This document shows positions 2,342 through 42,768 of a DNA stretch of 46,651 bases, in pieces; the first letter of the stretch is position 1, and each line of letters opens with the position of its first letter. Source of the DNA: Escherichia phage vB_EcoS-733R5; the sequence record ON470608.1, one strand, 5' to 3'. Made by a program: the position numbers and the translations under genes. The notes beneath the pieces are model-generated. The model saw nothing but the letters and a program-made list of their open reading frames with translations. It did no database searches and was not told the origin of the DNA.

Positions 2342-2668
2342 TTATATAACCGGGCATCCATCATCAGTAGGCCATGCGCGATTGATGTCGAATGTCACCA
2401 CCCCGACAACTGTAACATCATCCAAAGCCTCTCCTTCCAGAGTCTCACCGTCTCTTGTAATAAATGCCCGGCCCATAATTTTTGCAAAATCTGTGCCTCC
2501 GCCGTATTGAATTAAAACGGTATCTCCTTGCTTTGGTTTACCGGAGACATCGACTACGGTGTAACCAGTTTCTGTTTGCACGATCCGAGTATTAGGGCCG
2601 GTACCGCAGAGTTTATCGACGGTAAGCCGTCCTTCCACAAAGTCTGCTGCTGGCGATGGAAAGCCCAC
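2342..2668 (-). CDS. UmuD'-like / peptidase S24-like domain protein, apparently lacking the canonical Ser-Lys dyad
   Basis: N-terminus GFPSPAADFVEGRLTVDKL closely matches the UmuD segment GFPSPAADYVEQRIDLNQL that follows the autocleavage site; the C-terminal VVGVV resembles the S24 beta-core; the SGxSM catalytic motif is not evident. GTG start 2 nt after the upstream stop. Confidence 0.5.
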   Translation of the reverse strand: MGFPSPAADFVEGRLTVDKLCGTGPNTRIVQTETGYTVVDVSGKPKQGDTVLIQYGGGTDFAKIMGRAFITRDGETLEGEALDDVTVVGVVTFDINRAWPTDDGCPVI

Positions 2669-2670
2669 GA

Positions 2671-2910
2671 TTACAGCCCTCCATTTGGGTTGTAAAGCTG
2701 GAACGTGCGATCGTCACCTTCCTGCGTTGAGACGTCGCGGAATGTTGTCACGTAGCCCTCTATCCACTGATTAGCCTGCCGTGGCGACCAGTGCCAGTTA
2801 TATCTCTCCAGTTCCTGCAGAAATCGCCTGGTGGTGAGGATGCGCTTTCCGTTAGGCAGGATATCTATTGCCTTACGGCAGGCCGTCTCGATTTCGTATA
2901 AACGCGGCAT
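2671..2910 (-). CDS. Hypothetical small protein paired upstream of the UmuD'-like gene
   Basis: 79 aa from the ATG preceded by gggggaag; stop is 2 nt before the downstream GTG start; no family recognised. Confidence 0.4.
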   Translation of the reverse strand: MPRLYEIETACRKAIDILPNGKRILTTRRFLQELERYNWHWSPRQANQWIEGYVTTFRDVSTQEGDDRTFQLYNPNGGL

Positions 2911-3048
2911 ACTTCCCCCTGTCAAACTTACTGTATATAAACACAGTAAATGCATGTGTGCAGCAGATCAATATTGGCAGTGGCTATCAATGATCGGCGC
3001 TGACGTAACGCATTGATGCCTCAATTCGACTGGCAACATTGAGCAGGG

Positions 3049-3095
3049 AAATATTTATAAATCGTCTTCACCCCCCTCATATTACATCGGCTACC
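3049..3095. repeat. Copy A of an approximately 45-bp repeat encoding a serine-recombinase C-terminus
   Basis: The minus strand encodes ...GVKTIYKYFP...; direct repeat of the sequences at 3258..3304 and 3838..3882. Confidence 0.6.
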
Positions 3096-3257
3096 GACCC
3101 AATGTTTTAACTGCTCAGACCAGAAATATCTGGAAGCTTTAGGCATCTTCTTGGAAGATAGATGAGCGCAAAGACGCACACAGCAATGATGTTATGTAGT
3201 ATTTTCCCCTTGAGTGTGCCTGCTCAAGGGGATTTTTTATCGCCGTATTGTACTGGC

Positions 3258-3304
3258 AAATATTTGTAAATCGTCTTCACTCCCACGCCTGTCACATAGG
3301 CCAC
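3258..3304. repeat. Copy B of the recombinase 3'-end repeat
   Basis: aaatatttgtaaatcgtcttcactcccacgcctgtcacataggccac; the minus strand encodes ...VTGVGVKTIYKYLPV... Confidence 0.6.
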
Positions 3305-3322
3305 ACGCTACTGGACAGGCGC

Positions 3323-3745
3323 TTAGTCCGGTATGTTTCTCGCGCTACTACTGCTTACGTTAACGTCTGGTAATGCTCTAGCGGCGCGACGTAAAGCGGC
3401 GTTGAAAGCAATTATAGTGACCGGCCGGCGATGGTACTTCACACGGTTAGAATGACTCTGAAATAAATAAACATCTTCTGGATAGCGTTCTCTTCTACGA
3501 GCAATCATCGCCTCCACTGGAGGGGTTGATTTAACACGTAGCTCCTTCAGGTGACCCTGTTTTCGTATCAGTATCAAGTCACCATCAATATCATCATATC
3601 GAATACTCAGCAGCCTTCCAGCGCTTAAACCCGTGTGAAAAATTAACGCCCACAAGTCAGCCCATGTATCTGAGATGGAAACAAGATTGCTGTTAATAGT
3701 TAAAAATTGCTCAAAACTTATTGTTTTCTTACCGTTCACGAACAA
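3323..3745 (-). pseudogene. Tyrosine-recombinase-like fragment, apparently truncated before box II
   Basis: 140-aa ORF containing HTGLSAGRLLSIRYDDID (box-I-like); it terminates before any HxxR...Y region and runs directly into repeat copy B. Confidence 0.4.
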
Positions 3746-3822
3746 CCCAAACTGTTTTCAAAGCTGAATGAATTGATTAAGCCAAACGTAACATATCAGG
3801 AAAAGTAGTGAAATCTTTGTCT

Positions 3823-4054
3823 TCAAGTCGCCGGGAGGTACTTGTAGATTGTTTTCACGTCCACGCCTGTCACATCGGCTACCTGCTGCCGGGTTGCGCC
3901 CGTACCCAACATCCTGCGGCATCGCTCCACAACCTCAGTGGTCATTACCCGGCGCCGTCCACCTACTCTCCCCTGCTCCCTCGCTGCGGCTAAACCGGCG
4001 CGGGTACGCTCGACAATCAGCTCTCGTTCCATCTCTGCCATTATCCACAGTCGG
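3823..4054 (-). pseudogene. Serine recombinase (Hin/Gin/Pin-type DNA invertase) C-terminal fragment
   Basis: AEMERELIVERTRAGLAAAREQGRVGGRRR...QQVADVTGVDVKTIYKYL matches the invertase catalytic-domain end plus HTH; the N-terminal ~120 aa are absent; the 3' end is repeat copy C (3838..3882). Confidence 0.7.
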
Positions 4055-4229
4055 TTTTCGCTGTGATCCAGCGCGCTATCGACGAAATACGATTTTTTCC
4101 CGTGCGATCCAGGAATTCGCCTCCACCTCGGATAAGTGGATGCCGCACCGGCGCAGCGCTGACACAAAATCCTTTGTGTGCAGGTATTGAAAACCTTTGG
4201 AGTTGCGCAATACCGACTCGCGGAATGCC

Positions 4230-6183
4230 TGATTGATATCTGACTGACAGTGCATGATCTGCCCTCTGATAAACGTCGCGGTAGGGATACCCGTTACCGG
4301 GTACCCCCCGCACAGATCCCGGCGTGCGCTATTCACGCACCGGGCTCCTGCCTTGGGTGTCTGGCGGTGAACCGCTCCACAGGCCATGGATGCAGAACCC
4401 GAACCTTCGGCAGCCATACGGCTGCCAGTCTGTTTGCTTTCGTCCATGTCGTATCATCCTGCTGGCTCCTGCGCCTCAGCGCCCGTCGCCAGAGGTCTGT
4501 TACGTATATCCTGAACTTCCGCATCATGGGATAGTTGCCCGGGACTGAGTGGTAGTTCAGGTATCCCTGAACCACTCTCCTGAGCCATTTTCCCTGTTCG
4601 GGGATTGAGTAATGCCAGCGCTTTCGTAGTCCGTCCTTGATCGCTTTCAGTGTCGCCGTCATCCTGTCCCGGCGTGTCTTTCGTATCAGCATGAACCTGC
4701 CACTACGATCTTTCCCACTGATATGCGTGAACCCGAGGAAGTTGAACGTTTCTGGTTTACCTTTTCCCCTGCTGGCGCGGTTTTCGGCTGCGAAGCGGCC
4801 GAACTCCGTCAGTCGGGTTTTCTTCGGATGTACCGTGAGTCCGAACTCCTTCAGTCTGCGCTGCATGGCTATACGAAAGCATTGAGCGTCGATTCGCTTG
4901 TCGAACCCGATGACTATGTCATCTGCGTATCTGACCATGACCACATTGCCTGTGGCATGGCGGCGTCGCCACTGATGCGCCCACAGATCGAAGACATAGT
5001 GGAGGTAGATGTTTGCCAGCAGCGGCGAGATAACCGCACCCTGTGGGGTGCCTTCCTCCGATGCCCGCCATTCTCCTTCCTCTGAGGTCCCGGCTGTGAG
5101 CCACTTTCGTATGAGCCTGATTACCCTCTGGTCGCCGATTCTGTGTTCTATGAACCTGATTAGCCATTCATGGCTTACCTTGTCGAAGAACTGACTGATA
5201 TCGGCATCCAGTACCCAGTTTACATTGGTCCGAACCAGCCCTGTGGCCAGTGCGTCCAGCGCATTGTGCTGGTTTCGCCCGGGTCTGAACCCGTATGAAA
5301 ACCCCATAAAGTCATTTTCGTAGACTGCATTCAGGATCTTAACCAGCGCATACTGGACGATTTTGTCCTCCAGTGAGGCGATGCCGAGCGGGCGCTGTTT
5401 TCCATCCGCTTTCGGGATGTAGTGCCGCCTGCCGGGCTGAGCCCTGTAACTACCCTGATGAAGCCTCCGGTGCAGATCTGCTATGTTGACCTTCAGGTTT
5501 TCGGCGTAGTCCTTCCACCTGACACCATCAACTCCGGCAGCCGCTTTCCTGCTCAGGGAGAGGAATGCGTTCTCCAGTGCCTCTGCTGTCAGGAGGTGGA
5601 ACAATGCGGTAAACCGTTCTTTCTTCCGCTGCTTCGCAGCTTCCCGCACGCGTGACAGCCTCTGTGACATACTTTCCCGGCTCTGCGTCCGGCGCATGTG
5701 TGGCTGTTCCGCGTTTCCCTTGGCCCCGCTCCTTCGCTCCACTGACTCCGCTCCTTGCGGATTGTTCGCCAGATTCGCAGCTACTATGAGCGAGTCCGAC
5801 TTCTCCTCTCCGTACATCACCGGCTTCGGCTCCTCGCCTTCCCGGTGCGGGCCATCTCCGGCACTGGCAGATGGTCAGAGGGGAGATCTCCCGGTTCCCG
5901 CGTAAAGATCGTATTGACATGCCAGGGTCTCAGACCCCGCCGGGTCCATATGGCACTCGCAGTAACGCACCCTATGATGTTGCCTTCCGTAAACAGTACA
6001 ACGTCGGCACCCGGGAATTTAATATACATTTCGTGGCTCAATGGCTGGCCTGTCAACACCCCTGTCAACGCTTCGCCCCATACCTCACGGTATACAACGC
6101 ATGACTCGGGGACCCTGTGGATTGCTGGTCCTTCAATGGTCGGGGACTTTCACCCCTTGATCTTTACCGGTCTCCCGGCGCAC
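4230..6183 (-). mobile_element. Group II intron (3' boundary approximate)
   Basis: The minus strand begins GTGCGCCGGGAGACCGG (5' consensus GUGCG) at 6183, contains the RT/maturase ORF, and has a domain-V-like hairpin with a GTAA tetraloop at about 4278..4311. Confidence 0.7.
4333..5820 (-). CDS. Group II intron-encoded reverse transcriptase/maturase (LtrA-like)
   Basis: 495 aa with RT motifs (FxGxxxGxxxSPLLANIYL, YADD active site) followed by a maturase X-like domain. Confidence 0.85.
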   Translation of the reverse strand: MMYGEEKSDSLIVAANLANNPQGAESVERRSGAKGNAEQPHMRRTQSRESMSQRLSRVREAAKQRKKERFTALFHLLTAEALENAFLSLSRKAAAGVDGVRWKDYAENLKVNIADLHRRLHQGSYRAQPGRRHYIPKADGKQRPLGIASLEDKIVQYALVKILNAVYENDFMGFSYGFRPGRNQHNALDALATGLVRTNVNWVLDADISQFFDKVSHEWLIRFIEHRIGDQRVIRLIRKWLTAGTSEEGEWRASEEGTPQGAVISPLLANIYLHYVFDLWAHQWRRRHATGNVVMVRYADDIVIGFDKRIDAQCFRIAMQRRLKEFGLTVHPKKTRLTEFGRFAAENRASRGKGKPETFNFLGFTHISGKDRSGRFMLIRKTRRDRMTATLKAIKDGLRKRWHYSIPEQGKWLRRVVQGYLNYHSVPGNYPMMRKFRIYVTDLWRRALRRRSQQDDTTWTKANRLAAVWLPKVRVLHPWPVERFTARHPRQEPGA

Positions 6184-6252
6184 ACTGTTTTTATATACAG
6201 TAGTTATCGTCGCGAGATCATTCAAGCATTTTTGCCTTCCATGGCGTCAGTG

Positions 6253-9200
6253 CTACTGGTTGTTATCCAGCCAGTATTGCATCCATGCGTCAGCCATAAT
6301 ATTGCAGGCAAAGGTATATTCTGAGAATGTCGTTGAAATTTCTGAGAAGAAATCCAGATCCCACAGCTTAATCTGCCCATTGGTATTTGACCCACCGTAC
6401 TCATCAAAAGCATCCAGCAGGCGCTCAGCTGCTTCGAGGCAGGAGTTATCACCAGAATGCAGAAGAGGGTACAGCAGGAATCCAACCGTTGTCGGCTGCC
6501 CGCGGCGCGACTCCGCGATGCAGTAGTCCACTTCCTTCAGCCCACCGTAACCCGATACAGCATTTAACGCATAGGTTTCCATGTTTAGGACCGATGCCCG
6601 TCCCGCTGCTTTGCATCCGATCAGGTAGTTGTTCCAGGCATACACCTGATAATGCAGATAGCGACGCTTCGGAACATTCTCAGTGACGTTATCGGTAATA
6701 ATGTTTTTCACCCCGGCAAAATACGTACTGGATGAAAACTGACCGTCAACCATCGTCATCGCCGTAGCGTAGCTCCCGGAGGTATCCAGACCAGCAGCAT
6801 ACGCCATCGCCCAGGAACGGAACGCAGCAGCATAGAAGTTGCTGTTTGCCGAACCGACCGTACCGAATGCTGAATAGCAGTCTGCTGCCAGATTGCCGAT
6901 GGCCACTTTCAGTTCGGTTTGTTTTGCCGTGTCACCATTCAGCACCGCGAGCTTATAGAGCCACCACAGCGGAGGGAGTACCAGGCGGGAGGCAAACTGC
7001 AGCGACTTGGAATCAGCTGCGTTTCCGAGGTGAATGTTGCCGATACTTCCGTACCACGTTGTCGCCCACGCGGAGAACTTCGCATACACCGTCTCAAACG
7101 AGCCGATTTTCAGATGCAGCATGCGCACAATATCGCCGGCAATGGTGTTGAACATCCCGTTGCCGTTGTCGGTACTTGTCGCATCCAGCGTATTCCAGGC
7201 CGCAATACCGCTAATGACATCCCCCAGACGGCTGGCCAGTTTAGCCTGGCGGACGCGTGGGTACACAGATGACAGTGAAGCGAACCCAACAACAGGATTA
7301 AGTTCGACGTTAGACAATGCCGTAGTATCAGAAATGCTCTCGTTAAGGTTCATAGTGAATGAGACAGGCCACGCCCAACCCGCAGGAGCACCAAGGGTCG
7401 TTGTGGTCGATCCATATGTTCCTGCCGTCCACCCACCATCGAAACGTACATAGGATGTGGTTACTGTCAGCCCGGCGACTGGCGGCCTGTTACCAACAGT
7501 AGACGCTTCAGCAGAATCACGAATAGTATCGCCGCCTGCGTTACGGATAGACACAGAACGCAATACTGAATTGTCAGTCCAGATCGCGTTGTACTCGTTA
7601 CGATATGCTTTGGTCGCCGTTGAGTTAAGCTGAATGCGCGTCATACATGCAAACAGGGCATTAGCTGCCAGCGCAGATTGCAGGCGAGCCACAGCATCAA
7701 TCTGTACATACCCGTTTTTGAATACCCGAGTACGGTAGGTATGTTTAATCAACCGCGCCGCAATGGCCACGTTACCGGTAAGAGCGCCATTGTAGAAGAT
7801 AGTTTCTATTTCGGTGAATACCGGACCATCACTGATAATTTTGTACGCGTAGTCCGTATAACCCGCCGCGACCGTCGACCAGGCGGTGCCGGTTACCGTC
7901 GCATACAACTGCTGACAGATATTGGTATAGGTGATGCTGTCCCGCGTCAGTTTGTACGGCAGCCAGCCTACCACGCTGTCAAAACGCACCTGAGTCCCGT
8001 CATCGGCGGTTACCAGCAGACTGGTTGCGGTTTCCCGGTTCGTTCTGGTGTAGGAGGACGCATCCTGCGGTGTCGGGTAGGCCTTCAGCAGGTATTTTTT
8101 GGACGAGTTAGCCGGGATATTATCGAGGATAAGCAAATCCCCGCTGCGCAGGGAGCCATCAGCCCAGTAACTCAGGTTACGCCCCCGGCGCGGGTTAAAG
8201 TCTCCCTCTCCCGCCCACTGGGAGGGATATACCGTTCCGTCCGCATCCGTCACCACAATACAGCGGTCAGTCGGTACCTCACCCGCCTGGAATTTGCATT
8301 TTATCGCTACAGGGCGGCTTCCTGTTGCGTAATCAGTTGTGTTTTTAACCACAACCTCATAGCGGCGATACGTCGTTAAATCGTCAGTTGTCATTTTGGG
8401 CCCGTTGAACGTACCGGTTAATGTTACGTTTCCGTCAGTCGTCAGGGTGACGGCACCGGCGGCGAGTTTAAAAAGGTTGCAGAAGGTTTTTGTTGCGGAT
8501 ACAGATGTGACCTGACTGAACACGTAGCCTGCCAGCTTATCCACCACATACTGAATAATCCCCGCAGTGGTCAGCGCATAGCCTGCTGCCGTGACGTCCG
8601 CATTCAGGACAGCCAGAATCAGCATGCCCGTTGAGGCGTTGTAGGTGATGCCCCGTGTGGTTCCCCCGGCAATCGTGGTGGGAGTGAAGGCGTCAAACAC
8701 TCCTGCGCGGTCACGAATGATGCGGGTGGTGTCAGATGGCAGAGCACCGGGCAGCGTGACCGGGATGTTCATCGTCGTGCGACCGGTGGTCGTGTTGATA
8801 CCCAGGCCGTTGATACCCGCTGGCTGCAGCACAAAATCGACATACGGCGTTGTCAGGACGGCGCCGGCGGTAGATTCGCCTTCCAGCAGAGCTATGCTCT
8901 GTGAAGTACCAAGTCCGTCGGTCATCGTCATGACCAGGCGGCGCACGTTCGTGGAAAGGGACAGCTTATTCAGCGTGAAAATACTGCCGCCGCTCATCGT
9001 GGCACTGTAAGCCACCTGTGACCCATAGTTACCTACGGAGCCGATATTGGTCTGGTAGTCCCGGAGTTCGAGATTCAGCGCCCGCAACCTGTCAGCGGCA
9101 TACGCCTGAGCATTTGCAGCAATATTCACGGCATTGGCGTTTGACTGCATTTTCCCAACATCAAGAGACAGTTTTTTTGTCACCTGAATAGTCGCCGTAC

Positions 9201-10290
9201 AGTTCTGGTCGGTGACCGCTGTCACCGCCCCCGCCTCTGAGAAAAACAGGGTGTATTCAGGCAGCGTCTGAGAAGCGGTGGATTTCTGGCTGAGGATAAT
9301 CCCGCCGTAAGTATCCCAGAAATACTTCTGCGCCCCTTCCGTTGTGTCGGCATACCCAGCTGCAATCATCACCGTACGTGATACAGCGACATATAGCAGA
9401 TCGTTAGCGGCATCAAAAGCAAGCGTATCTACAGTGTAGGTATATGCAGACGATGCTATGCCGATAGGGATTCTGTTTTTACGGTCGCGCAGCACGCGCG
9501 CCTCTGTAGCAGAAAAAGCCCGTGGGAGTTTAATTGACCCTTTCAACACCCAGGTGTTAAACGTACTGGCGGAAACACTATCAACAATGAACTGGCGCAT
9601 TGCCACGTCATAATACAGGGTTGTCAAAACACCATCGGTCAGCGTTTCCCCGTCAAAAAACCCCTGACTGAACAGCGTCCTTCCCGCTCCCGTTAGCGTC
9701 AGCGTACATGCGGCTGTAGCAAAAGATGTGGAGAAAGAGGAAATGGACAGCAACACGCGATCCGCATAAGTCGCCGATCCGTTCAGTGCCGATGATCCGC
9801 CGGAAGAAAACGCATCCAGATACTGGGTAAAGTCTGCAGCCAGCGTACGCCGGTCTGGCATACTCATTCCGTGTAACTGGTTATCACGGACAGAGGAAGC
9901 GGTTGCTACCTGACCAGCTGCAATCAGTGCCTGGTTAACTGAATTCTGCGACGGCATTTTCCGCCCGGTAGGCTGCAGCGTCCCGGCGTTGTTAATGACC
10001 TCGATAGCCAGCGCAGAATCATCAGGGCTACGGTAATACGTGGTCGAGCCTACCGGAATATTCGCGATGTCCGCCTGTGCCGCCGCCAGCGTCGCATACT
10101 GTTTACTGAGCGGGATCAGGTTCTGCCTGACCTCATCGTTTTTCGCCATCATCTGGCGCCACGAATAGAGTGGATCGCCACCACGGTCGGGAACATCAGC
10201 GGCTGGCCCATTGACCAGCTTATCCAGGCGCTCGGCATTATCGAGCAGCACAGCGGGAGACGTGCTCCCCAGCTCCGGGTTAAAGGCCAT
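6253..10290 (-). CDS. Phage tail fibre / tailspike protein (1,345 aa from the SD-supported ATG)
   Basis: Very large Ser/Thr/Gly/Ala-rich ORF last in the tail operon; ggag lies 9 nt upstream of the ATG at 10290; the C-terminal ~300 aa form a distinct domain. Confidence 0.7.
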   Translation of the reverse strand: MAFNPELGSTSPAVLLDNAERLDKLVNGPAADVPDRGGDPLYSWRQMMAKNDEVRQNLIPLSKQYATLAAAQADIANIPVGSTTYYRSPDDSALAIEVINNAGTLQPTGRKMPSQNSVNQALIAAGQVATASSVRDNQLHGMSMPDRRTLAADFTQYLDAFSSGGSSALNGSATYADRVLLSISSFSTSFATAACTLTLTGAGRTLFSQGFFDGETLTDGVLTTLYYDVAMRQFIVDSVSASTFNTWVLKGSIKLPRAFSATEARVLRDRKNRIPIGIASSAYTYTVDTLAFDAANDLLYVAVSRTVMIAAGYADTTEGAQKYFWDTYGGIILSQKSTASQTLPEYTLFFSEAGAVTAVTDQNCTATIQVTKKLSLDVGKMQSNANAVNIAANAQAYAADRLRALNLELRDYQTNIGSVGNYGSQVAYSATMSGGSIFTLNKLSLSTNVRRLVMTMTDGLGTSQSIALLEGESTAGAVLTTPYVDFVLQPAGINGLGINTTTGRTTMNIPVTLPGALPSDTTRIIRDRAGVFDAFTPTTIAGGTTRGITYNASTGMLILAVLNADVTAAGYALTTAGIIQYVVDKLAGYVFSQVTSVSATKTFCNLFKLAAGAVTLTTDGNVTLTGTFNGPKMTTDDLTTYRRYEVVVKNTTDYATGSRPVAIKCKFQAGEVPTDRCIVVTDADGTVYPSQWAGEGDFNPRRGRNLSYWADGSLRSGDLLILDNIPANSSKKYLLKAYPTPQDASSYTRTNRETATSLLVTADDGTQVRFDSVVGWLPYKLTRDSITYTNICQQLYATVTGTAWSTVAAGYTDYAYKIISDGPVFTEIETIFYNGALTGNVAIAARLIKHTYRTRVFKNGYVQIDAVARLQSALAANALFACMTRIQLNSTATKAYRNEYNAIWTDNSVLRSVSIRNAGGDTIRDSAEASTVGNRPPVAGLTVTTSYVRFDGGWTAGTYGSTTTTLGAPAGWAWPVSFTMNLNESISDTTALSNVELNPVVGFASLSSVYPRVRQAKLASRLGDVISGIAAWNTLDATSTDNGNGMFNTIAGDIVRMLHLKIGSFETVYAKFSAWATTWYGSIGNIHLGNAADSKSLQFASRLVLPPLWWLYKLAVLNGDTAKQTELKVAIGNLAADCYSAFGTVGSANSNFYAAAFRSWAMAYAAGLDTSGSYATAMTMVDGQFSSSTYFAGVKNIITDNVTENVPKRRYLHYQVYAWNNYLIGCKAAGRASVLNMETYALNAVSGYGGLKEVDYCIAESRRGQPTTVGFLLYPLLHSGDNSCLEAAERLLDAFDEYGGSNTNGQIKLWDLDFFSEISTTFSEYTFACNIMADAWMQYWLDNNQ

Positions 10291-10365
10291 GTTTTTTGCT
10301 CCAAAACGGTGTTCGCCCAAACGAGGGTTTGAGCGAAAGAAAAGTTGAAAGGGATTTTTTTGGTA

Positions 10366-13300
10366 TTAAGCGACGTCGCCGGGGTATGTGGCGTCGTCGT
10401 ACTGGTAGAACGATTCGAGGTATTCTTTAGCGGTGACCTGACAGGTTCCGTCAGACTGCGGGGCGATCTCCTCTACAATGGCGTCGTAGACATGGCGCGT
10501 TGAGCCGCAGAACACCAGGCGGATCGGCTCAATGGTTGCCGACGACAGGTCAACCTTCATCGGATCATCAAACTCACTCAGGTGCGGGACTGACAGCTGA
10601 AAATCACCCACCCTGCTTGCCACCATCAGCCCGGATGCAGAGCCATCCTGATAGCGGATCAGCGCTCGAGGGTTTTCGAAAGACCAGTCCAGCGGCTCCG
10701 TAACGGTGAACGTTGTCACGCCACCAGCCGTTGTCATCGCCTCCACCAGACAGGAAATCGTGTTGTTACCCGGAATATCATCCGTGAGCACAATGCGATC
10801 GCCCGTGTTGTAGCACAGCGCGTCCAGCTCTGTAGTGGCCTGGAACGTCACCCGCTGCAGCAGGTATTTCATCAGGCGACGCATGCCGATCTGATAGGCG
10901 TGGTCCTGATTGAGTACCCCATCGAGTTTATAATTCTCGATCTTCACTGGCGTCGGATTGTCCGGCGTCCGGCATTTAACGGTCTCCTCTGCCCAGGTAG
11001 TCCCGTTGATGTACGTCACGTCGACGCCATCAAAATCATCGTCGGACGGTACGGTAAATCCGCTCTGCAGCTCCTCCACCATCTCATGCGGAGTGATCAT
11101 GCCAGTCCAGGGCTTAATCCCCTCACGGTTGACCGTCGCCAGGCCATCACTCAGCAGAAAACGTGACTTCCCGGCATTGGCTATCTTCTGCAGCATTTCC
11201 AGCGCTGAGATACTGTCGCCCGTGGCGAAATCGAAATTTTCGCCCCGTGGCGTCCAGTACGCGGATTCCAGCGCGTTGATGGTGTCGACGTCCATCTCCA
11301 GCCCCAGCGAGTTCCCGACATGCAGCAGCGCCCCCGAAATGGTTCTGGCGGTTCCTGAGTCATAGGCGCGCGTGGCCACAACGTTTACGCGGCGGTCCGA
11401 CTGCGCCGCCAATTTGCCCCCCGTCTCAACGGTCACCGCCATCAGCGACACGCCGGGATAGGATGAAGGGCGCGTCAGCAGTCGCCCGCGCAGTGCCTGC
11501 CAGTACATCGTATCTCTGGCATTATCCTGCCCCTGTTCATTTTTCCGGCGACACCGGACCTCAACGAGGCCTGGTGAAGGCAGAGTGATACGCTCAGTAA
11601 ATCCAAGTCCGTTAATATTTTTTAACTTGTAAAATCCGTCGCGCGTTTCCCATCCTCCCCCTGAGCCGTAAATACGGTATTGAATTACCCAGCCAACCCA
11701 CCACGCTTCTTTCTTGCCCTTCTTGTTGAATCCACAGATACCACTCGGGAAAGAGAAATTTACTTCGAAAGCGTCAATCTTTTCGTTCTCAGGGCAGGCA
11801 AGAAATGGTCCCATCCAGGTATCATTATCGTTTATCCCGGTAGCCTCATAGTCGATCATCGTCCTGGCTATGAATCCCGGCCATGACTCATCAATAACAC
11901 CGTTAACCAGACGCGCCACCGTTGCCGTCGCGCCGTCGGCAGAGGCGATCTGGTATTCATTGCCTCGGTGGGCAAGTGAAAGCCGCTGCACCCCCTCCGG
12001 CATCCCGGAGAATGCGGTGCCCGTGGCGCTGTTATAGGCGAGTGTCACATTCGCCGTTACCGCCGGGCTGCCGCCAGTTGATGCCGTGCCGGAGGTGTAA
12101 ACCGGGGCATCACCGAAAACAGCTGCAGGCAGCGAAGAGGACGTGATCGCCCCACCCGCGAACGGACTGGCCGCCTCTGTTATCAGTACAGTGCCGCCGT
12201 TGTCCTGCGCAACCAGGCCGGATCCGGTGAGTTCCTCGGTGATGGCCGCCAGCAGTCCCGACATCGAGACGTAGTTAGCCACCAGCGACACCGGGTAGGT
12301 AACCCCCTGCCAGGTGATCGTGAACGCGCTGGAGCTGGTCGAAAAATCGTAGGTGGTCGGGGCCGCACTGGCCTGGACTTTTGCCGCACTCCCCCCCGTG
12401 CCGGGCACTGCAACCTGACCGGGGGTATATGACGCGATAAACAGATCGTAATCGACAGAGTTAAACCCCAGCGTCACCGGCATACCTACTACCGGCGCGA
12501 TCTCCGTCAGCAGCGGGCTTGCGATAACGCTGTATCCAGCCGCCGTGGTGATCTGGTAGTTCGCCGGGGCTTTAAGTTCGACCACGGCGCCAGCGACCCA
12601 GCTGGGCGGCAGTGCGTTATCGTTCTCGTCATTATCGTCATCATCATCCGTATCCAGCCCCGTAAACGTCACGCTCGATCCGGAGACGGTCATGCTGTCT
12701 GCGATAATGTCGTCTGCGTCCGGCGACGTCTGGGCCATATCCAGCCCGGTGCCGGATGACGTCCCGCCAACTTCGGTGGAGTTGACCCAGTTTTCGCTGC
12801 GCTCATCACCGGAAACGTCCGCGCCTGGCGGGTAATGGGTGCTGCTAAATCCAGGTAGCGTTGAAGCTGGCGTACTGCCAACCCTGATATCGCCATTGGT
12901 ATAAATCAAATCACCGACACCGAGACACAGCAGCATCTGGACGCGCATTTTCGTAGGATCGGCGGCATCAAACCGGGTAACCGGCTGCACCACATAATCA
13001 GGGTAGATACGCACCCGGCCAAATACCTCACGAATGGCATCACCGAGTTTTGCGCTGTTTGCTTTAGCGGGGTTCAGGTCGAGGCTTCGACCTGTGGATG
13101 ATGTATAGCCGCCGGCATCAATGTTACTCATCATGAACAATGAATAAGCCGCAGATGCGACGGCAATGCCCACTCCTATCCAGGCAATTGTCGCGGCCTC
13201 AAGCCCGAAAGGCACCGGATAAAGCCTGACATCACTATCAGGGCGAATCACACACTTAGCCCACTCGACTGGCGGAATTAACAGCCCCTCAACCTCAACG

Positions 13301-42242: not shown

Positions 42243-42317
42243 TAAGTTCTATGTCCCCTTAGTTAAATGGATATAACGAGCCCCTCCTAAGGGCTAATTG
42301 CAGGTTCGATTCCTGCA
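42243..42317 (+). tRNA. argW: tRNA-Arg (anticodon CCU)
   Basis: 75-nt cloverleaf-compatible sequence with a GTCCCCT/AGGGGAC acceptor stem, CCU in the anticodon loop, a GTTCGATTC T-loop and a 3' CCA. Confidence 0.9.
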
Positions 42318-42768
42318 GGGGACACCAGATACCCTTCAAACGAAATCTACCTTCACCCCGTAAAAGATGGGTTTGGCAGCACACTTGCCTTATATCTACT
42401 CATTTTTACTGCAACAGGTTGAAATCTCAGCACTGTCAGAAAGCGCTGATGACTAAACAGCCCTGGGCCGGGCGATGTAACCATCACACAGAATCCTGAT
42501 AGCGAAATATGGCGTGACTCGATACTTCACTCCGCAATGCATTCCTTGATGAATTCGCAGGACCGTGATACACGGGACAGGTCACTGAATGACGACAATG
42601 TCCTGGAAATCAGCGAACCGCGCATCTGAAGTACATTTGAGCGACTGTACCAGAACATGAATGAGGCGTTTGGATTAGGCGATTATTAGCAGGGCTAAGC
42701 ATTTTACTATTATTATTTTCCGGTTGAGGGATATAGAGCTATCGACAACAACCGGAAAAAGTTTACGT

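Follow-up and report, generated by a model that had tools for sequence, protein, structure and literature searches.

The stretch analyzed here, 46,651 base pairs (bp) of Escherichia phage vB_EcoS-733R5 (ON470608.1; hereafter the window), contains a prophage integrated at argW, and in the accessory region that extends from its tail-spike gene to the attachment site lies an array with three direct copies of the 3' end of a Gin/Pin-type serine DNA invertase gene. Comparison with related genomes leads us to regard these copies as stacked scars, probably left when related phage or prophage genomes underwent unequal illegitimate recombination three times in succession. Read along the minus strand, the region begins with a LexA box (6202-6184), a group II intron and a small SOS gene, g1, followed by a junction at 4040/4041 and by invertase residues 111-183, which end in copy 3. 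Then come a spacer of ~80 nucleotides (nt), an open reading frame (ORF) derived from a tyrosine recombinase (the Tyr-like gene), copy 2, an element of ~150 nt, copy 1, a second LexA box, a second g1 homologue and a UmuD'/HumD-like gene.

The codon pattern GTGAARACNATYTAYAARTAY (V-K-T-I-Y-K-Y) has exactly three matches in the window, all on the minus strand (3051-3071, 3260-3280, and 3838-3858), and none in 100 shuffles. A repeat finder delimits copy 1 at 3038-3095, copy 2 at 3247-3314, and copy 3 at 3825-3892, from the groupings 3038-3075 / 3247-3284 / 3825-3862, 3261-3314 / 3839-3892, and 3073-3095 / 3861-3883; copies 1 and 2 are 84% identical over 38 nt, copies 2 and 3 78% over 54 nt, and copies 1 and 3 78% over 23 nt. 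With an intact relative of 183 amino acids as query, tblastn aligns residues 111-180 at 4041-3832 (expectation value, E, 3e-36), residues 163-181 at 3307-3251 (E 2e-4), and residues 171-180 at 3074-3045 (E 0.005), and finds no further invertase homology elsewhere in the window. The three methods agree with an earlier sequence-only reading, which had reported three direct copies near these positions.

The copies differ in their state of preservation. Copy 3 (core 3838-3858) is the last ~68 nt of a minus-strand fragment at 3823..4040, an open frame of 73 codons for the C-terminal residues ~111-183 of the invertase, which matches the C-terminal end of Pfam Resolvase together with HTH_7 (PF02796, E 1.9e-6, above the gathering score) and PHROG 125 (DNA invertase, E 1e-23) and is by tblastn 86% identical to the intact 183-residue invertase. 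As the fragment begins at residue ~111, the N-terminal catalytic domain with its serine nucleophile (~residue 9-10) is absent, and homology of the window to intact invertase alleles ends at 4040. An invertase body is attached to this copy only, as had also been noted from the sequence alone and is borne out by the Pfam and PHROG matches. Copy 2 (3247..3314, minus strand) comprises residues ~158-181 and a few bases of its own downstream flank, is interrupted by two in-frame stop codons, and lies in the same frame behind the Tyr-like ORF (3745-3323), past two stop codons. Copy 1 (3038..3095, minus strand; repeat finder and comparison), covering residues ~163-181, is frameshifted and the most decayed; its downstream flank runs on into a LexA-regulated operon, as it does in single-copy genomes. 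The invertase fragments are predicted to be functionless by now, and the annotations 'helix-turn-helix domain-containing protein' and 'site-specific recombinase' in this region are dead fragments. A 52-residue ORF over copy 1 (3021-3179) was rejected as a gene, having no family match and losing its frame in locus L033.

A comparison of genomes with one, two, three, and four copies revealed that each additional copy closes one cassette. The single copy of E. coli p10A (L031), a prophage at the same yfdC/argW site, is an intact invertase followed directly by the SOS operon, and its 3' end with flank has counterparts in the window in copy 1 as well as in copy 3. Two copies are found in L030, L033, and L034 (invertase end, cassette B, copy 1), three in the window, L001, L002, L009, L010, and L044, and four in L057, L063, and L148. 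Cassette A measures 578 bp and carries the 140-residue Tyr-like gene, and cassette B measures 208 bp and carries a conserved hairpin element. A survey of IMG/VR gave at least 120 phage contigs. Among the contigs listed, the spacings of cassette A (577-581 bp) and cassette B (206-210 bp) predominate, and rarer cassettes measure 347, 422, 604, 816, 976, and 1933 bp. The 976-bp cassette encodes SOS genes, that of 422 bp in L008 (5262-5528) a colicin-immunity-like gene, and that of 1933 bp (L057, ~8640-10560) a sugar transferase and a PIG-L-type deacetylase, named by eye without a family search, whose role is probably O-antigen modification. The array is widespread in prophages of Escherichia, Klebsiella, and Raoultella, and its blocks are 94-100% identical between phages with unrelated tail modules (TipJ type in L001, baseplate-J type in L002, tail-spike type in the window). 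We found no description of this array in the literature.

Every copy bears a downstream flank that is found behind an intact invertase in another genome. The flank of copy 1 matches L031, and the end of copy 2 with its flank is the invertase gene's own in L030, L033, and L034. Each copy is therefore the tail of an invertase that once stood directly ahead of the unit to its right, and copy 2, going by this match, is the 3' end of an invertase allele formerly located directly ahead of cassette B. The three copies stem from three different invertase alleles.

A full-length invertase precedes the same three-copy array (spacing 577-590 bp, then 207-210 bp) in 27 of the 120 contigs listed, which means that the array is not the product of a decaying switch. 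The suggestion that the region is the wreckage of a tail-fibre inversion switch is thus right in part: the fragments do come from a Gin/Pin/Hin-type invertase, one that flips tail spikes in relatives, but the array itself, which also follows full-length invertases, is no debris of such a switch. Peculiar to this prophage lineage is only the loss of the N-terminal part at 4040/4041.

The intact arrangement is seen in four Klebsiella loci (L004, L005, L007, and L008), where tail spike A, a small gene, an opposed small gene, and an opposed tail spike B are followed by a 183-residue protein with Resolvase and HTH_7 domains and by a Tyr-like gene of 138-141 codons. Inverted 26-bp gix-like sites of the AAACC-NN-GGTT(T/C) type, TTCGCTCAAACCTGGGTTCAGGCGAA, are present in L004 and L008, one within the tail-spike gene and the other shortly ahead of the invertase, so that the comparison with intact invertase regions proposed from the sequence alone yields invertase, sites, and opposed tail-spike genes together. 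The window has no match to this site at up to three mismatches, a single AAACCNNGGTTT-like match is within chance expectation, and no gix- or hix-like crossover site lies in or near the repeats. Its array neighbourhood contains one tail-spike gene (6253-10320, minus strand) and no opposed alternative, whereas the relatives have two opposed genes. The earlier remark that neither an intact invertase nor an alternative tail-fibre C-terminus remains is accordingly correct, and the window contains no working inversion switch.

We propose that the array was built up as follows. At one end, these phages have their genes in the order tail fibre or spike, invertase, variable accessory region, SOS operon, and attachment site, and in each event the left genome would break just past an accessory unit and the right genome inside its invertase gene, so that the recombinant retains a dead invertase tail. 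Event 1 would have joined an invertase and cassette B to an invertase tail (from residue ~163) with the SOS operon, giving copy 1, and event 2 an invertase and the Tyr-like gene to an invertase tail (from residue ~158) with cassette B and copy 1, giving copy 2. In event 3, in the present lineage, tail spike, LexA box, and g1 would have been joined to an invertase tail (from residue 111) with cassette A, copy 2, cassette B, and copy 1, giving the truncated invertase that contains copy 3. The blocks would then have spread among enterobacterial prophages by homologous recombination, the invertase gene and the SOS operon serving as flanking homology. The order of events is inferred indirectly, from the gradient of decay: copy 3 is still open over its 73 codons, copy 2 has two stops, and copy 1, which would be the oldest of the three, is frameshifted and has the highest nucleotide diversity (0.106, computed over 31 distinct arrays).

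The breakpoints themselves argue for illegitimate joining. Invertase homology extends upstream of the core for ~25 nt in copy 1 and 36-42 nt in copy 2, and for 54, 78, 132, 168, 198, or 234 nt in other cassette types, which shows that the breakpoints are scattered and that there is no fixed crossover point; the proximal (first) copies are likewise truncated at many different lengths among phages. Of the proposal of repeated recombination at a hotspot at the invertase end, the recombination is thus supported by the comparative data, and the fixed point, with remnants of 25-234 nt, is not.

A close examination of the newest junction was made by three-way comparison of the window with its g1 parents (L154, L155) and its invertase parents (L001, L030, L031). 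The patch TGGCnAnnATGG (4028..4041, minus strand; switch at 4040/4041) links the 3' end of g1, in frame, with codon ~110 of the invertase. In other prophages g1 ends ...CTGTGGATGCTGGCGAACATGG..., intact invertases read ...AGCGCCCTGGCAGAAATGGAGCG..., and the window reads ...CTGTGGATAATGGCAGAGATGGAACG...; at the nucleotide level parent X has CTGGCGAACATGG and parent Y CTGGCAGAAATGG, and the window changes over within the patch. The switch lies in 13 nt of imperfect microhomology, as expected for illegitimate joining. Its product was an in-frame chimera of g1 and the invertase DNA-binding domain, and an extra A (+1 frameshift) in the A-run at ~4095-4100 ends g1 at 66 residues and splits the chimera into g1 and a separate open frame. 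L063 is analogous with another breakpoint: an invertase end and SOS genes are followed there by a truncated invertase and then by cassette A, cassette B, and copy 1.

Several observations weigh against this history. Microhomology was checked at the newest junction only, as no left parent was found for the joint between cassette A and copy 2 or for that between cassette B and copy 1. In addition, copy 1, copy 2, and the extra copy of L008, the shortest remnants of all, start without exception at invertase residues ~158-163, a clustering that random breakpoints do not predict and that could reflect trimming or selection for short scars. Finally, presence/absence variants differ by exactly one cassette and one repeat, a pattern that site-specific insertion and excision, or homologous deletion between repeats, would produce equally.

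We consider it unlikely that the three-copy state is ancestral, with the one- and two-copy states arising by RecA- or Red-type deletion between repeats and the repeats themselves going back to one old event plus tandem unequal crossing-over. Phage recombinases can act on direct repeats of 44-58 bp that include identical blocks of 14-21 nt, and the repeats of the array are of this kind; unequal exchange between them could also give the four-copy arrays. The single copy of L032 is indeed a mosaic, with a window-like invertase allele upstream and an L031-like end downstream, the switch being within GGTAGCCGATGTGA. However, plain allelic recombination explains L032 equally well, and as a proof of repeat-mediated deletion it was set aside as ambiguous. 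Such a history leaves unexplained how the first partial copies formed and why each cassette has a junction position of its own, and three distinct alleles, each intact elsewhere with the matching flank, fit a building-up better. Deletion between repeats is compatible with stepwise accumulation as a secondary process.

The cargo of cassette A bears on the second alternative. The 140-residue protein of the Tyr-like gene (3323..3745, minus strand) matches phrog_19751 (E 6e-46), a profile that is itself 140 positions long; the ORF has no Pfam or NCBIfam match, a PDB sequence search gave nothing meaningful, and the assignment comes from PHROGs, a profile search, and fold comparison only. The AlphaFold2 model (predicted local distance difference test, pLDDT, 84) has as its top Foldseek matches the catalytic domains of lambda Int, XerA, XerH, and Cre (template modeling, TM, scores 0.6-0.78), with 0.75 for the lambda Int/Xer catalytic core. 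We identified 158 homologues of ~135-150 residues with identity down to 59%, and relatives sharing 38-46% identity from the genera Kluyvera, Yokenella, Scandinavium, and Pseudocitrobacter, almost all of which end just past 'SSxSAR'; loci of the family occur in about eight genera, including Escherichia, Klebsiella, Raoultella, and Kluyvera. A scan of 1.84 billion representatives gave 23 clusters with E < 1e-30, mostly of 130-150 residues, and only remoter relatives reach 182-192. The ratio of nonsynonymous to synonymous substitution rates (dN/dS) is 0.10-0.24 at moderate to high divergence, and within its clade the gene is intact in 80 of 82 copies, with 38 synonymous and 53 nonsynonymous variants.

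In alignment with relatives of 183-187 residues, Arg-I is replaced by S/G/V and the box-II His by S, and the ORF stops just past the box-II Arg, so that the following His/Trp and the Tyr nucleophile are absent. With Arg-I, the box-II His, and the nucleophile lost, the protein is predicted to be unable to cleave DNA by canonical chemistry. Its closest relative of 175-188 residues has K/Q/W at the catalytic positions, and a Franconibacter relative of this size, which has lost the catalytic residues too, is located at a prophage end beside gtrA, a GT2 glycosyltransferase gene, and a UmuD-like gene. These features identify the Tyr-like protein, as far as its sequence can tell, as a maintained non-catalytic derivative under purifying selection rather than wreckage. 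The sequence-only reading had copy 2 fused behind a truncated tyrosine-recombinase ORF; the position is right, in the same frame, and 'truncated' is not, given a conserved family of ~135-150 residues. The ORF, labelled 'hypothetical protein' or 'site-specific integrase' in annotations, encodes a conserved non-catalytic protein.

That the last ~60 bp of the invertase gene form an attachment site, at which a site-specific recombinase inserts and excises small circular cassettes, the Tyr-like gene being the relic of this recombinase, is in our view quite unlikely. The arrays of one to four repeats with varied cargo (Tyr-like gene, hairpin, colicin-immunity-like gene, sugar transferase with PIG-L deacetylase, SOS genes) do resemble such a system, as do the single repeat per cassette, the invertase ORF that is always regenerated, the start of the three short remnants at residues ~158-163, and the presence of a tyrosine-recombinase-derived gene within the array. 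But the remnants vary from 25 to 234 nt with the type of cassette, the repeats share 63-84% identity and derive from different alleles, and they contain neither a core of dyad symmetry nor a gix-like site. Visual inspection for a dif/Xer-like site in their core yielded only a 7/11 match to one arm, and this candidate was rejected. The Tyr-like protein lacks Arg-I, the box-II His, and the Tyr nucleophile, its closest relative of 175-188 residues has K/Q/W there, and there is no candidate active recombinase within the array. A circularized cassette A would not, as read from the sequence, restore a full recombinase gene, and that candidate was rejected: read-through of copy 2 past copy 3 hits stops, with no C-terminal domain. 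The sole junction with known parents is a microhomology join. Very unlikely, finally, is a true capture site at the invertase 3' end, where cargo for O-antigen modification, immunity, SOS functions, and other purposes would be gained, lost, and reordered at a ~60-bp repeat with the dead Tyr-like protein acting as a DNA-binding accessory or regulator. Chance similarity or an assembly artefact is a negligible explanation, in view of the codon pattern's absence from all 100 shuffles, the recurrence of the array in dozens of phage contigs, and the stretch 2900-4200, which is 100% identical across 10 independent complete E. coli genomes and GenBank ON470622.1 and so excludes an artefact of assembly.

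Within the array inferred to have grown by stepwise illegitimate joining, conservation is uneven. Over the 31 distinct arrays, nucleotide diversity is 0.054 in copy 3, 0.040 in copy 2, 0.065 at third and 0.032 at first and second codon positions of the Tyr-like gene, 0.025 in the unique part of cassette B, and 0.006 in the spacer separating the Tyr-like gene from the invertase stop codon (3746..3824, minus strand), the most conserved piece of the array and, being near-invariant, presumably the promoter or leader of that gene. The unique part of cassette B (3096..3246) is a conserved non-coding element with a strong intrinsic terminator at 3205-3240 on the plus strand, found by a terminator scan. 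Although non-coding, it is less diverse than neighbouring synonymous sites (0.025 vs 0.065), and its 69 copies represent 51 alleles that have long invariant stretches. Cassette B matches no Rfam family and has no convincing promoter, and at this diversity its alleles are too similar for a covariation analysis. The pattern suggests that cassette B is a small RNA or a regulatory element, and both it and the gene of cassette A are, by these measures of variation, apparently kept by selection.

The right-hand anchor of the array is the SOS operon (2342..2955, minus strand), with a LexA box at 2929-2947, g1' (phrog_3893), and a UmuD'/HumD-like protein of 108 residues; it is 78-87% identical in L001, L002, and L031. 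The pair of g1 and UmuD-like genes closes many unrelated prophages beside attachment sites and also occurs on plasmids. Between the LexA box and copy 1, L001 and L002 have ~250 extra bases (345 bp vs ~95 in the window), in which a small hydrophobic ORF (MSQTDLLIVVFTLGILAFGYSIWFISNRILC...; L001 ~6770-6900, plus strand), read by eye from the alignment, faces the cassette B terminator; it could be an SOS-linked membrane peptide.

The second copy of g1, the left partner of the newest junction (4076..4254, minus strand, 66 residues), is parted from its LexA box (6184-6202) by a group II intron (6183 to 4275, minus strand) that begins with GTGCG, scores 184 bits for D1-D4 against Rfam, and has D5/D6 at 4349-4275; it is the only known RNA family found in 2900-6300 with Rfam. 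The intron is located directly past the LexA operator (...TACTGTATATAAAAACAGT followed by GTGCGCC; loci compared L156, L157, and L158), and an intron-free allele in strain 184/2aE has exactly the predicted splice junction. Other copies (266 places in E. coli genomes, 220 on plasmids) occur in unrelated contexts and mostly share the 17-19 nt just upstream, which are SOS-box sequence. One stands beside a plasmid 240-nt gene and HumD operon in opposite orientation, and another near chromosomal hlyE, at a LexA-type box whose sequence we take to be that of the umuDC operator. The intron thus appears, from its insertion contexts, to home to umuD-type LexA boxes; our literature search found no paper on an intron targeting LexA boxes.

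At the left end of the prophage, beyond yfdC (1-933), a 27-nt 5' fragment of argW with one mismatch occupies 1008-1034, and the complete tRNA-Arg(CCU) gene is located at the right end (42253-42327), which indicates that the phage replaces the 5' part of the tRNA upon integration. An ORF of 81 codons (1664-1909) is labelled 'NACHT, LRR and PYD domains-containing protein 12-like' in the GenBank record; it has no Pfam, PHROGs, or NCBIfam match, and the name therefore looks like an annotation artefact.

Among known systems, the Gin/Pin/Cin/Hin switches (Mu G segment, e14 P segment, P1 C segment) share with the array the serine invertase family from which its fragments come (HTH_7 end, ...GVxVKTIYKYxP), and in relatives a full invertase of 183-189 residues does stand beside two opposed tail-spike genes with 26-bp sites. 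In contrast, the window has no catalytic domain, no crossover sites, and no alternative tail-spike gene. Its repeats are direct rather than inverted, and they occupy the gene's 3' end, opposite the side on which the relatives have their crossover sites. Integron arrays are likewise series of small cassettes, each closed by one repeat, beside a recombinase gene; however, there is no IntI-type integrase, attI, or attC-like imperfect palindrome in the array of the window, and its repeat is a coding-sequence remnant of variable length. The catalytic-domain-only tyrosine recombinases of FimB/FimE size (~185-190 residues) have the fold of the 140-residue protein, whose distant relatives of 182-192 residues keep R...HxxR...H...Y, whereas the 140-residue family ends right past the box-II Arg and is without Arg-I and the box-II His. 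Duplication of a target end, as in the integration of e14 into icd (with the icdC pseudo-end) or of phages into tRNA genes, also leaves an intact functional end and a displaced pseudo-end beyond the insert. The genuine case of this kind in the window is its own argW attachment site; the invertase ends differ in being of variable length, with no active integrase or att core.

The closest parallel is provided by the remnants and 'morons' at the mosaic boundaries of lambdoid and other temperate phages. Under the Hendrix/Juhala model of phage mosaicism, illegitimate recombination followed by selection is expected to leave parts of genes at the borders between modules, and the array shares with such remnants the partial gene copies at joints, the microhomology junction found in the window, and the variable accessory cargo between a conserved late gene and the attachment site. 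It differs in that three nested scars of one gene are present within 850 bp and the order of events can be read from them. In summary, the array is an ordinary phage mosaic scar in an unusually legible and widespread form, with no new mechanism. As a clean worked example, it preserves the record of three recombination events within 850 bp, with a fourth added in some relatives, and illustrates how temperate enterobacterial phages accumulate accessory cassettes in the interval from the tail-fibre invertase to the attachment site.

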